DNA of 51,598 bases, taken from IMG/VR virus record IMGVR_UViG_3300045988_159957. One strand, given 5' to 3'. The notes under the pieces are model-generated. The model had not been told where the DNA came from, did not search any database, and saw only the letters and a list, made by a program, of their open reading frames with translations. The stretch comes from a virus. This document shows, piece by piece, positions 10,072 through 12,143 of this stretch. Every line of letters begins with the position of its first letter. The stretch's first letter is position 1. Both the position numbers and the translations under genes were made by a program.

Positions 10072-10569
10072 ATGCCTTATCCATATAACAATCCCTATAT
10101 GCAACCTACTCAAATGAGACTAAATCAAATGGAACAACAGTTCCCCCAATTTGCTCAGGGTTATCAGAATTTCCAGGGTTATCCTCAGCAAATGTCTATT
10201 AAAGGAAGACCTGTTTCTTCTTATGATGAAGCAAAAGCAAGCATGATAGATCTTGATGGCTCTGTCTTCATATTTCCTGATTATGGGAATAACAAGATCT
10301 ACACCAAGCAAATCAACCTTGATGGAACAGCTACAATAAACACTTATACACTTGACACCCCCGTACAGTCTCAAGCTGCACCCGTGAAATCGTCAAATTC
10401 AAGCCAAAATACGCTTGACCTTATAAATAACCTCCAGTCACAAATAAACACTATAAAAGGACAAATAGACAATTTGCAGACAGGAAGAGGTGAAAAGAAT
10501 GCAGAATCCGTTCACGCAAATGATGCAGGCAGCAAACATGATGAGAAATCCAGGTCAAACAATAAATAG
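10072..10569 (+). CDS. Q/N/P/Y-rich low-complexity protein with a conserved-looking central domain, hypothetical
   Basis: 165 aa. N-terminus MPYPYNNPYMQPTQMRLNQMEQQFPQFAQGYQNFQGYPQQ, then IKGRPVSSYDEAKASMIDLDGSVFIFPDYGNNKIYTK. Confidence 0.6.
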   Translation: MPYPYNNPYMQPTQMRLNQMEQQFPQFAQGYQNFQGYPQQMSIKGRPVSSYDEAKASMIDLDGSVFIFPDYGNNKIYTKQINLDGTATINTYTLDTPVQSQAAPVKSSNSSQNTLDLINNLQSQINTIKGQIDNLQTGRGEKNAESVHANDAGSKHDEKSRSNNK

Positions 10570-10741
10570 TCTCATGCAGAATAACCCTAACATGAGAAGA
10601 GCAATGGAAATGTCCGAGGGTAAAAGCCCTGAACAGATCCAGCAGGTTTGTAGAAATCTGTGTGATCAGATGGGTGTGAATTATAATGATGCTCTGAATC
10701 AGTTCCAGAGCATGTCAGCTCAATTTGGTATCAAGCTCTAG
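10499..10741 (+). CDS. Q/N/M-rich small protein, hypothetical
   Basis: ATG 10499 lies 8 nt after GGAAGAGG (track start 10490 is GTG). Overlaps the previous CDS by about 70 nt. Confidence 0.5.
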   Translation: MQNPFTQMMQAANMMRNPGQTINSLMQNNPNMRRAMEMSEGKSPEQIQQVCRNLCDQMGVNYNDALNQFQSMSAQFGIKL

Positions 10742-10778
10742 AGCTTAGATATAAATATCAAAGAAGGAGGAAAAGTCT

Positions 10779-11396
10779 ATGGGAATGGAAGGAAGTGGAC
10801 TGAGTGTTGCTGATGCATTGGCACTCGGTAAAAACAATGATGGCATGTTCGGAGGTAGTGGCTCCGGTGCATGGGTATTCTTCCTGTTCTTCTTACTCGC
10901 ATGGGGCGGTGGTGGCTTTGGCTTTGGCAACAGAGGAGAAAACCTTGCTACCCAGGCAGATGTGCAGAGGGGCTTTGACAATCAGGCGGTTATCAACAAG
11001 CTGAATGGCTTAGAGAGTGGTCTGTGTGATGGCTTCTATGCTATGAACACCGGTATGCTGAATGGCTTCTCTGGTGTTAACGCTGCTATTGCCAATCTGG
11101 GTTATCAGGAACAGCAGTGCTGCTGCACTACTAACAGAAACATTGATTCTGTTAAGTATGAAAATGCACAGAACACCGCTGCGATCGTTAACGCAAGCAA
11201 TGCCAATACCCAGAAGATTCTGGATGTCATCACTCAGAACCAGATCCAGGATCTGCGTGATAAGCTTCAGGAAGCTCAGCTGCAGAACAGCCAGTGTGCT
11301 CAGAATGCTTATCTTATCAACCAGCTTCAGCCTGTGGCAAGACCTGCATACATCACCTGTAGCCCGTATGCTGCATCTGGATGTTGCAACTGCTAA
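10779..11396 (+). CDS. Gly-rich membrane-anchored, Cys-cluster protein (YjcZ-like N-terminus), hypothetical
   Basis: 205 aa. GGSGSGAWVFFLFFLLAWGGGGFGFGN hydrophobic core flanked by Gly runs, plus QQCCCTTNRN and a C-terminal SGCCNC. Strong RBS. Confidence 0.65.
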   Translation: MGMEGSGLSVADALALGKNNDGMFGGSGSGAWVFFLFFLLAWGGGGFGFGNRGENLATQADVQRGFDNQAVINKLNGLESGLCDGFYAMNTGMLNGFSGVNAAIANLGYQEQQCCCTTNRNIDSVKYENAQNTAAIVNASNANTQKILDVITQNQIQDLRDKLQEAQLQNSQCAQNAYLINQLQPVARPAYITCSPYAASGCCNC

Positions 11397-11430
11397 CAGA
11401 AGACATCTGTGCTTATCAGCACCAAATCAA

Positions 11431-11457
11431 GAGGACGGTGCAAGCTGTCCTCTTTTT
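11431..11457 (+). terminator. Rho-independent terminator
   Basis: GAGGACGG / CTGTCCTC stem (8 bp, one G-U), 6-nt loop, then TTTTT. Confidence 0.7.
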
Positions 11458-11478
11458 CAATTGAAAGGAGAATACAAT

Positions 11479-11919
11479 ATGAATTGTAATTATCAAAAGT
11501 CCTGTGTAGAAGTGTATAACAATACACCTACTACAATCAATCCCACTGTTAATGGAGGAGTTCCTGCTGTATTCGGTAACACTGCCACAAGAACTGGATG
11601 TTCTATGAGTGTAAACACAAACGGAGTTACCATTGAGCACGGTGGATTGTATGAATTTAATTTCGATGCATCCTATCTTAACGGAGCAACTGCCGGAACC
11701 CTTACAGCTCAGCTCTATAAAGATGGATCTCCCGTGGGTTCTGCTCTTGCAAATGATGAGCTTACTGCAAATGGAATAGGTAACATGTCCTTCTCCACAC
11801 GGTTGAAAGTTCCTACCTGCTGTGCAGTTCAGCCTGTATTCACAGTAGTGTTCACCGGAACTCTGGCAACTGCTGTCACTATCCAGCATGTAGCTCTGGG
11901 AGTGACACGCTTGGCATAA
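11479..11919 (+). CDS. C1q/TNF-like (BclA C-terminal-domain-like) protein
   Basis: ATG 11479 follows GAAAGGAG. The track's longer ORF from 11062 crosses the terminator. Pattern GVTIEHGGLYEFNFDASYL...GTLTAQLYKDGSPVGSA...VTIQHVALGVTRLA resembles the BclA-CTD jelly roll. No collagen repeats. Confidence 0.5.
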   Translation: MNCNYQKSCVEVYNNTPTTINPTVNGGVPAVFGNTATRTGCSMSVNTNGVTIEHGGLYEFNFDASYLNGATAGTLTAQLYKDGSPVGSALANDELTANGIGNMSFSTRLKVPTCCAVQPVFTVVFTGTLATAVTIQHVALGVTRLA

Positions 11920-12143
11920 TGAATGACAATGAACAGCTTGGCTTATTAGATATCATCACAATCATCGGATTCATGCTCAATTTACAGAATTATGGTAAGA
12001 ACGTGGATCAGAGTAAGATGCAGAATGCTATAAGTCAAGCTGTATCTGATATTCATGGTCATCTTCAAGAGCAGGATAGAAAGATAGATAGCATCTATGA
12101 GATGCTGAAAGGAGAAAAAGATGGATCGAAAAGAGATGATTAG
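11919..12143 (+). CDS. Small protein with hydrophobic N-terminus and helical tail, hypothetical
   Basis: TAATG overlap with the upstream CDS. 74 aa containing LGLLDIITIIGFMLNL. Confidence 0.5.
   Translation: MNDNEQLGLLDIITIIGFMLNLQNYGKNVDQSKMQNAISQAVSDIHGHLQEQDRKIDSIYEMLKGEKDGSKRDD

Follow-up and report, generated by a model that had tools for sequence, protein, structure and literature searches.

L-BclA, a C1q-headed protein, attaches to ENA fibres through Cys-rich N-terminal connectors that carry a CC motif (PMC12357932), and gp24 of the cyanophage Pam3 combines a helical shaft with a TNF-like domain in a minimal fibre design (PMC9608196). Here we describe a phage gene module that can be compared with both. 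It lies in IMG/VR virus record IMGVR_UViG_3300045988_159957, a stretch of 51,598 nucleotides that we refer to as the window and that represents a siphovirus genome of ~51.6 kb with a gene order akin to that of Dulem virus 36. A first-pass annotation, made from the letters alone, had marked five genes at 10072-12143, here called P1 to P5, as an uncharacterised cassette. All five open reading frames (ORFs) are present on the + strand where it had placed them, with P2 at 80 rather than 81 amino acids (73 in independent gene calls, which start seven codons later). Comparison across genomes established that they belong to a conserved module in which terminator-like hairpins bracket P1-P3, and in which P3, a helical protein with a Cys-containing tail, is paired with an interchangeable beta-sandwich head that bears a Cys peptide. 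This head is either P4 or an unrelated protein, X. The genes are indeed uncharacterised: P1-P5 received no assignment from Pfam, NCBIfam or PADLOC, and P1, P3 and the additional member P6 fall into PHROGs of unknown function. The best PADLOC match of any module protein (E=2.5e-4) covered short stretches only, with scores far below a meaningful level, and a known defence system was rejected as a candidate. No gene of the module has been given a function in the databases or literature that we searched, and papers on Clostridium perfringens phages and on Seuratvirus and BASEL phages contained no usable functional data or virion proteomics for these families.

We examined 80 IMG/VR viral contigs, 65 genome or metagenome-assembled genome (MAG) contigs and three annotated phages, and express counts out of 149 loci. 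The gene order common to them was P1, P2, P3 and then P4 or X, preceded in many cases by sig, a sigma-70 region-4 gene upstream of P1, and followed in some by P5 and P6. P1 was present in 138 of the 149 loci, P2 in 118, sig in 95 and P6 in 79; the count for P5 (43) is an underestimate, as short ORFs are undercounted. Given this recurrent order, the adjacency of the five genes is not due to chance. The interval 10072-12143 does contain all five, but the unit is larger than first drawn: P6 belongs to it too, and so, probably, does sig, which has the same length of 77 amino acids in an independent gene call. Homologues of P3 form 7018 clusters and those of P1 form 2517; Pfam domains and informative names are absent throughout, and an identical P3 protein occurred in 202 blocks of the assembly collection.

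A terminator-like hairpin was found ahead of P1 in 106 of 136 loci (78%), compared with 30 of 150 control intergenic gaps (20%), and another lay between P3 and P4 or X in 101 of the 136 (74%, again against 20% of control gaps). In the window, the terminators of the first-pass annotation were all recovered, two by our scan and the third, after P6, by eye, as its 10-nt loop is beyond the limits of the scanner (Table 1). A promoter-like motif, TTTACA-N17-TATGAT, in which AG often precedes the second hexamer, occurs eight times in the window compared with 0.6 expected; these sites stand ahead of the genes that follow the cassette, of the - strand blocks and of the start of the packaging block. A scan of the window found no promoter-like site in front of P1 or P4. 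The cassette had been likened to a moron, a comparison that the hairpins suit but that an order kept in 149 loci and the lack of a promoter-like site before P1 or P4 in the window do not. Strong ribosome-binding sites, which had been attributed to all five genes, were confirmed for P1, P3 and P4 (AGGAGG-type; P2 has GAGGTG) but not for P5, which has a weak GGGAG site and a start that overlaps the stop codon of P4 (TAATG).

P3 opens with an acidic tail, followed by a hydrophobic stretch, AWVFFLFFLLAW, that is set between Gly runs (about residues 30-42). This segment is kept in 135 of the 147 family members. A long helix contains the invariant motif CCC(E/T)TN(R/K)N (QQCCCTTNRN in the window copy); P3 also has an ITCSPY motif, and a Gly/Cys tail terminates nearly all members (SGCCNC at the C-terminal end here). 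The Gly-flanked core and Cys clusters described in the first pass are therefore real, as are the Q-rich N-terminus of P1 and the Q/N/M-rich composition of P2. The supposed resemblance of P3 to YjcZ-type tiny transmembrane sporulation peptides was not borne out, as no NCBIfam model matched at E<=1 (the relevant model is presumably TIGR01732). AlphaFold2 (AF2) modelled P3 at low confidence as all-helical, with helices at ~30-42 (the hydrophobic segment), 60-91 and ~100-181 (~80 residues) and a disordered Gly/Cys tail, and a search of the P3 profile against the PDB returned nothing meaningful. Along the long helix, N or D returns at an interval of 11 residues (positions 121, 132, 143, 154, 165 and 176), a spacing that suggests a hendecad coiled coil with polar layers. 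The positive-inside rule gives no clear verdict on the topology of P3, with few charges on either side of the segment; the acidic N-tail slightly favours an N-out, C-in orientation.

P4 gave a confident AF2 model of a TNF/C1q jelly roll (predicted local distance difference test score (pLDDT) 91.6; predicted template-modelling score (pTM) 0.85). The closest PDB entries in Foldseek were the C-terminal domain of F-BclA (9h38), BxpB (8d02), BclA (1wck) and ExsFA (7r5i), with E about 1e-9 to 1e-8, template-modelling (TM) scores of 0.65-0.77 (about 0.75 for F-BclA, BxpB and BclA) and probability 1.0; EDA, C1q-like proteins (C1QL) and APRIL came next. P4 is thus a jelly-roll beta sandwich that can be superposed on BclA C-terminal, C1q or TNF domains, and its 146 amino acids contain no exosporium leader and no collagen-like GXX repeats, in agreement with the first reading of this gene as C1q/BclA-like without collagen repeats. 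The Pfam model BclA_C (PF18573) matched P4 over positions 3-126 of 128 below threshold (a score of 16.8 bits where 38 is required; E=0.0065); some P4 homologues have precomputed matches to this model (for example, P0131), and weak ones occur in two other loci (L160 and L165). In BFVD, P4 matched stand-alone gut-phage proteins of ~140 amino acids as well as C-terminal domains of collagen-repeat and tail-fibre proteins. The family comprises 482 representatives (E<=0.001), mainly of 130-150 amino acids, which have in common the N-terminal peptide M.C...Y.KS, the motif TGCS and a CC pair in the interior; C41, C114 and C115 are the conserved internal Cys residues of P4. We propose that P4 forms a trimeric head.

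The slot after P3 held P4 in 66 loci and X in 74, and never both. The co-occurrence of the CCC-TNRN protein with a C1q-like protein, which the first-pass annotation had put forward as a check, therefore extends to many genomes besides this one. Starting from P4, we looked up individual family representatives and found P3 directly upstream in six of the six sampled members with upstream DNA; a close-alignment search for further loci returned the same phage only. X is a Cys-rich beta protein of about 110-140 amino acids that is unrelated to P4. After the P3 sequences had been thinned to 80% identity, 14 of 68 had a nearest relative with the other type of head, indicating that the head has been exchanged repeatedly. 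The idea that P4 and X are divergent homologues was rejected (hhalign probability 0.1%; the P4 profile found nothing in X-type loci). N-terminal Cys motifs occur in both X and P4 sequences, and to the connectors of endospore appendages they bear a resemblance only: the appendage subunit families DUF3992 and DUF4183 had no match at E<=10 among 34 X members. Marginal matches linked X to Gram-positive pilin-like surface proteins (E=0.015).

The structural neighbours of P4 bear directly on the proposal of the first-pass annotation that a moron cassette decorates the spore or cell surface of the host in the manner of an exosporium. BclA, BxpB/ExsFA and F-BclA, the closest solved structures, are exosporium proteins, and terminators do bracket the unit. 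Tails rich in Cys and in Gly/Tyr are reminiscent of proteins that cross-link the spore coat, and a ferritin-like protein, as P6 may be, recalls coat proteins. The distribution of hosts largely refutes a spore-surface role. The host labels of phage-sized MAG contigs are unreliable, but several loci are embedded in large bacterial contigs, namely those of Dialister (2.5 Mb), Phascolarctobacterium (546 kb), Clostridia (443 kb), Lachnospiraceae and Faecalibacterium. Non-sporulating and diderm Firmicutes are thus among the hosts: Dialister, Phascolarctobacterium and Faecalibacterium, all of which carry it in prophages, do not sporulate. Relatives of P3 occur even in phages of E. coli, Salmonella and Yersinia. 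Moreover, the gene order is kept in ~150 loci rather than being sporadic, and the exosporium leader, the collagen repeats and an NCBIfam match of the YjcZ type are all missing from the proteins concerned. We regard the exosporium-like cassette as very improbable; a cell-surface or virion-decorating assembly in the wider sense is possible.

Our favoured interpretation, to which we assign a probability of roughly 0.3, is that the module encodes an accessory complex, akin to a fibre or an adhesin, that works together with the tail apparatus. P3 would be the stalk, probably a trimeric coiled coil of ~12 nm that is held by its hydrophobic N-terminal segment; a trimeric helical stalk would fit heads of the TNF/C1q kind, which are threefold. 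A small beta-sandwich head with a Cys-bearing peptide at its N-terminus would come from the gene after P3, and disulfide or metal bridges may fasten it to the Gly/Cys tail of the stalk to give a two-chain, knob-on-stalk assembly. The connectors of L-BclA offer a parallel for this docking, and Pam3 gp24 one for a helical shaft that carries a TNF-like domain. The balance tips slightly towards such an architecture, with P3 as the stalk and an interchangeable head; association of the module with the tail or virion is a tentative further step. P1 and P2 could be dedicated partners of P3 that are co-transcribed with it, and possibly holdases for its hydrophobic segment, and P5 and P6 would be accessories. 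The complex would be assembled in the cytoplasm before acting with the tail apparatus.

P1 and P2 offered few clues of their own. The N-terminus of P1 is rich in Q, N, Y, P and M (11 Q, 6 P, 5 Y and 5 M in the first 42 residues) and leads into a conserved domain of ~50 amino acids (KGRPVSS.DEAKA.MIDLDGS.F.F.D..N.KIYTKQI.LDGTA) and a C-terminal amphipathic helix; the P1 profile had no match in the PDB. P2 is 15% Q, 14% N and 14% M, with Met/Gln/Asn-rich NP..QMM repeats ahead of a conserved RAQQMAQGKS..EL.Q.A.NLCKQRGI, and had no significant match in Pfam or the PDB. The repeats resemble STI1/DP helical-hand domains, a lead that the searches did not support: PF17830 was matched by 2 of 29 P2 members, at a best E of 0.14, and the PDB yielded no match, so that we rejected this assignment.

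The link to the tail apparatus is favoured by two observations, namely that the soluble parts lack an export signal (no signal peptide was found in P1, P2, P4, X or P6) and that tail-fibre or receptor-binding genes precede the module in phages that differ widely from one another. In Dulem virus 36, which also has a P5 homologue, it comes after receptor-binding or tail genes; in L098, it is placed after the tape-measure gene block; and in a Dialister prophage (L135), it follows a gene for an internal virion protein and a tail-fibre gene. A comparable position is occupied by PHROG 9288, whose members are distant homologues of P3 over residues 53-203 (tblastn E=1e-4; PHROG 9288 E=0.008) and occur in enterobacterial siphoviruses (Seuratvirus, Nonagvirus, Drexlerviridae and T5-like). 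Like P3, they contain CCCETN.NI, LRD/LQEA and a Cys at the C-terminal end, and their gene always stands directly after tail-fibre or receptor-binding genes: that of the lateral tail fibre in Seuratvirus and Drexlerviridae, and those of tail proteins in the T5-like phage vaffelhjerte, in which a P3-like remnant lies just behind the tail-protein genes and a 755-aa hypothetical gene. They differ in having a Gly-rich, glycine-zipper-like N-terminus where that of P3 is rich in F and L, a Pro-rich C-terminus and downstream partners of other families (122, 176, 94 and 67 amino acids), and in lacking P1, P2, P4 and X. Deposited labels for PHROG 9288 members are 'hypothetical', 'putative lateral tail fiber chaperone' and 'putative sugar-binding protein', and the BASEL paper contains no functional data on these enterobacterial modules. 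In the Escherichia phage KurtStettler, the P3-like domain is part of a single protein of 510 amino acids (bas22_0024; L085:4020-5552), directly behind a fibre tip and an intramolecular chaperone domain of the S74 type (SDRDLK motif), and the chaperone label on this protein probably reflects its S74 part only.

We also observed a conserved set of genes after the P3-like gene in the phage Greed (L003:6528-7928) and in L086. It encodes a His-rich, MazG-like protein of 122 amino acids, a beta-rich protein of 176 amino acids with a C-terminus like the end of the tail-fibre family PHROG 4128 (E=1.8e-7) and a protein of 94 amino acids. A protein of 67 amino acids with a Cys-rich N-terminus is found in Greed and KurtStettler and was not detected in L086.

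Several findings weigh against an accessory fibre. In Clostridium phage CPD1, the module is situated ~4 kb downstream of the lysis genes, amid small early-type ORFs, about a dozen of which separate it from the tail and lysis genes, and we found no structural annotation of module genes in phage records. A strongly conserved transmembrane-like segment, such as that of P3, is unusual in fibre proteins. The P3 model has a pLDDT of 47, the hydrophobicity of its helix does not have a clean periodicity, and the proposed oligomeric state comes from the 11-residue pattern alone. hhalign detected no relation between the two heads, and a helical-hand character for P2 found no significant support. Placement in the virion and a contact between P3 and P4 are both predictions. 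A further point concerns receptor specificity. In three phages (L152-L154) that are otherwise 97-100% identical, the 487-aa gene that follows the receptor-binding-like gene in the window is represented by alleles of 464 to 535 amino acids with ~30% identity, and the 325-aa gene before it is 82-87% identical. This looks like the swap of a host-range cassette. P3 and P4 were 97-100% identical across these phages, despite the replacement of a putative receptor-binding gene, and the module therefore does not track receptor specificity. A coupling of P4 to receptor specificity was accordingly dropped as a candidate.

That independence is compatible with a different role for the module, in which P3 and P5 anchor a complex in the cytoplasmic membrane of the host, during infection or lysogeny, that acts in superinfection exclusion, in blocking DNA entry or in 'lytic conversion'. 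Such a complex would account for the hydrophobic segment of P3 and the hydrophobic N-terminus of P5. Membrane and exclusion genes of a comparable kind (cor, llp, lom and HK97 gp15) likewise adjoin tail-fibre or receptor-binding genes, and the site of the vaffelhjerte remnant would correspond roughly to the T5 region that carries the receptor-binding gene and llp. The hairpins that bracket P1-P3 are moron-like, the G+C content of the module (0.41-0.44) is above that of its flanks (0.36-0.39) and, in two temperate contexts (L163 and L158), the module is the final unit ahead of an integrase or resolvase gene. However, P1, P2, P4, X and P6 are devoid of signal peptides, so that any complex would be exposed on the cytoplasmic side, and it is not obvious what a lectin-like knob would bind there. 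Known exclusion systems use far fewer genes than the four to six present here; conservation resembles that of core genes in thousands of phages; no integrase was found among the subset of window ORFs that was screened; and PADLOC gave no match. On balance, we consider a membrane complex of this type rather unlikely. Similar doubt attaches to a broader formulation, in which a widespread phage system would place a Cys-linked knob-on-stalk at the inner face of the host membrane, or carry it in the virion into the membrane, with an interchangeable TNF/C1q-like or X head, Met/Gln-rich holdases and a ferritin-like accessory. To see in it a new machinery of the phage-host envelope, with no counterpart in known tail, lysis or exclusion systems, is equally speculative.

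Membrane segments next to tail-fibre genes could instead point to an accessory function in lysis or envelope disruption, with P3 resembling a class-III holin or a spanin and P5 serving as its small membrane partner to aid or time release. The position after the tail-fibre genes is typical of lysis genes in many sipho- and podoviruses, and in the Dialister prophage the module is flanked by the tail-fibre gene on one side and, on the other, by small ORFs that lead up to a 547-aa gene. P3 has an N-terminal membrane segment and a helical Cys domain, and its enterobacterial relatives have a Pro-rich C-terminus ending in Cys. Against this, the window has a complete pair of r1t-type holin and Amidase_2 genes elsewhere (Table 1), as do Dulem virus 36 and CPD1, and a canonical lysis cassette was rejected on these grounds; neither P3 nor P5 matched a holin or spanin family, no lipobox partner is present, and the P3 family also occurs in phages of monoderm Clostridia, in which a spanin is not needed. 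A lysis function is therefore improbable in our view. We note that the holin and amidase genes of the window lie between the genes for the large terminase subunit and the portal, an unusual site that they also occupy in Dulem virus 36.

P6 suggests yet another possibility. It has no Pfam match itself, but its profile matched helices A-B of archaeal and bacterial ferritins in the PDB (5ls9, 3kx9 and 1s3q; E=3e-4 to 7e-4), with a weaker second stretch in register, and it conserves H33, E59, E121 and E157. The gene in the P6 slot of L165 has a weak Rubrerythrin match. P6 is thus probably a ferritin-like four-helix bundle, as judged from these profile alignments. The module could then be a metal-handling assembly set, in which the Cys clusters bind zinc or an iron-sulphur (Fe-S) cluster in the reducing cytoplasm and P6 supplies or buffers iron for a tail or fibre part. 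Metal is not foreign to phage tails: lambda gpL has an Fe-S cluster and T4 gp37 binds iron. The best ferritin match (E=3e-4), the Rubrerythrin match, the His-rich 122-aa protein next to the enterobacterial P3-like gene and the fact that all Cys-rich parts are without export signals agree with this idea. P6 is missing from about half of the loci, however, the His of the ExxH motif in helix B is a Tyr in the window copy, P3 shows no spacing of the classical metal-binding kind, and the fold of the knob is not linked to metal chemistry. We judge that a primary role in metal handling has little likelihood.

In the window, the module block (~2.6 kb, roughly 5% of the genome) is preceded, at 2-9 kb, by genes for the tape measure and Dit and by gp37-like and receptor-binding-like genes; the - strand carries the replication genes (15-39 kb) and terminase, portal and capsid genes fill ~42-51 kb. 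Coordinates are given in Table 1. The 46-aa ORF after P6 occurs in two loci only, and its membership of the module is doubtful. Two small membrane proteins between the tail genes and sig, of 89 and 55 amino acids, recur as a pair ahead of many P4-type modules; homology between the 89-aa protein and P5 was considered and dropped (pairwise E=1.3). Another putative Cys-bearing ORF, rich in Arg and Ser, overlaps the upstream part of the sig reading frame. Elsewhere in the window, four genes on the - strand resemble a DNA hypermodification set, and a sharp trough in G+C content (0.27), probably a regulatory or origin region, marks the switch in strand bias between the - replication block and the + packaging block.

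Table 1 Positions of module genes, signals and other features in the window
Feature	Position	Strand	Length (aa)	Basis or remark
487-aa gene after receptor-binding-like gene	7501-8964		487	Putative receptor-binding gene
Small membrane protein	8980-9249		89	N-terminal hydrophobic segment and coiled coil; PHROGs of unknown function
Small membrane protein	9262-9429		55	Hydrophobic segment at C-terminal end
Arg/Ser-rich ORF	9576-9731		51	Ends RRCSACGRFM
sig, sigma-70 region-4 (helix-turn-helix) protein	9742-9975	+	77	Pfam Sigma70_r4 E=1.1e-8; PHROG 36 'transcriptional regulator'
Terminator-like hairpin ahead of P1	10004-10037	+		Scan; 15-bp stem, then T run
P1	10072-10569	+	165	PHROG 21718 (unknown function)
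P2	10499-10741	+	80	Met/Gln/Asn-rich
P3	10779-11396	+	205	PHROG 16490 E=1.8e-25
Terminator-like hairpin between P3 and P4	11429-11454	+		Scan
P4	11479-11919	+	146	TNF/C1q/BclA-C-terminal-domain jelly roll
P5	11919-12143	+	74	Hydrophobic N-terminal segment and C-terminal helix
P6	12121-12723	+	200	Ferritin-like profile match; beyond the first-pass interval
CxxC...CxC peptide ORF	12729-12869	+	46	After P6; followed by third hairpin
Hairpin after P6	12857-12882 (stem 12857-12864 / 12875-12882)	+		Read from sequence; followed by T run
Promoter-like motif TTTACA-N17-TATGAT	12912-12940, 13855-13883, 41828-41856	+		
Promoter-like motif TTTACA-N17-TATGAT	25070-25098, 38461-38489	-		
Hypermodification-like cluster	18386-21717	-		
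Thymidylate-synthase-like gene	18386-19213	-		Hypermodification-like cluster
Small kinase gene	19177-19644	-		Hypermodification-like cluster
Radical SAM and SPASM enzyme	19805-20785	-		Hypermodification-like cluster
TET-associated glycosyltransferase	20773-21717	-		PF20691; hypermodification-like cluster
G+C trough	40001-41000			G+C 0.27
Holin and amidase pair	44444-45467			
r1t-type holin	44444-44716			Phage_r1t_holin
Endolysin	44703-45467			Amidase_2

The module ranks among the more extensive coherent blocks of phage 'dark matter', occurring in thousands of gut phages and lacking assigned functions, yet its anatomy is defined: a putative stalk with a swappable knob, two partners of low sequence complexity, flanking hairpins and an accessory that is probably ferritin-like. 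Cultivable relatives are available in Clostridium perfringens phages of the CPD1 type and in the E. coli BASEL phages Bas22 and Bas09. If the module does encode a fibre or adhesin, it would have a bearing on host range and on phage engineering; if it encodes a membrane complex, it would represent a new kind of phage-host interface. The module also shows that the BclA/ExsF-type fold is common in phages.

Compared with known systems, P4 shares the jelly-roll fold of BclA, ExsFA (BxpB) and F-BclA and, as in ExsFA/BxpB, forms a stand-alone domain of ~145 amino acids. With L-BclA it has in common the pairing of a C1q-type head and an N-terminal peptide that contains Cys (PMC12357932). It differs from BclA in having neither collagen repeats nor an exosporium leader, and from exosporium BclA in being encoded by phages whose hosts include sporulating as well as non-sporulating bacteria; its proposed partner is a helical protein with a hydrophobic anchor, and not an Ena pilus or the basal layer of the exosporium. 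The knob fold of P4 is similarly like that of phage fibres with TNF/C1q knobs (Pam3 gp24, the carbohydrate-binding domain of the A-1(L) short fibre and the collagen-repeat fibres in BFVD), and the module genes are, like theirs, at the end of the tail block. Unlike in these fibres, the presumed stalk and the knob are on separate genes, and P3 combines a conserved hydrophobic segment with a CCC motif and a Gly/Cys tail. Two co-transcribed Met/Gln-rich partners (P1 and P2) are present, and the knob alternates with the unrelated family X. The P6 profile aligns to helices A-B of ferritins, including the conserved Glu of helix B, whereas its ligand set in the window copy is incomplete (Tyr for His) and there is no sign of the function of a 24-mer ferritin. 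The design of the module resembles both phage fibres and the BclA/ENA systems without matching either in full, and what it has in common with known kinds are the folds of two of its members, TNF/C1q in P4 and ferritin-like, probably, in P6.

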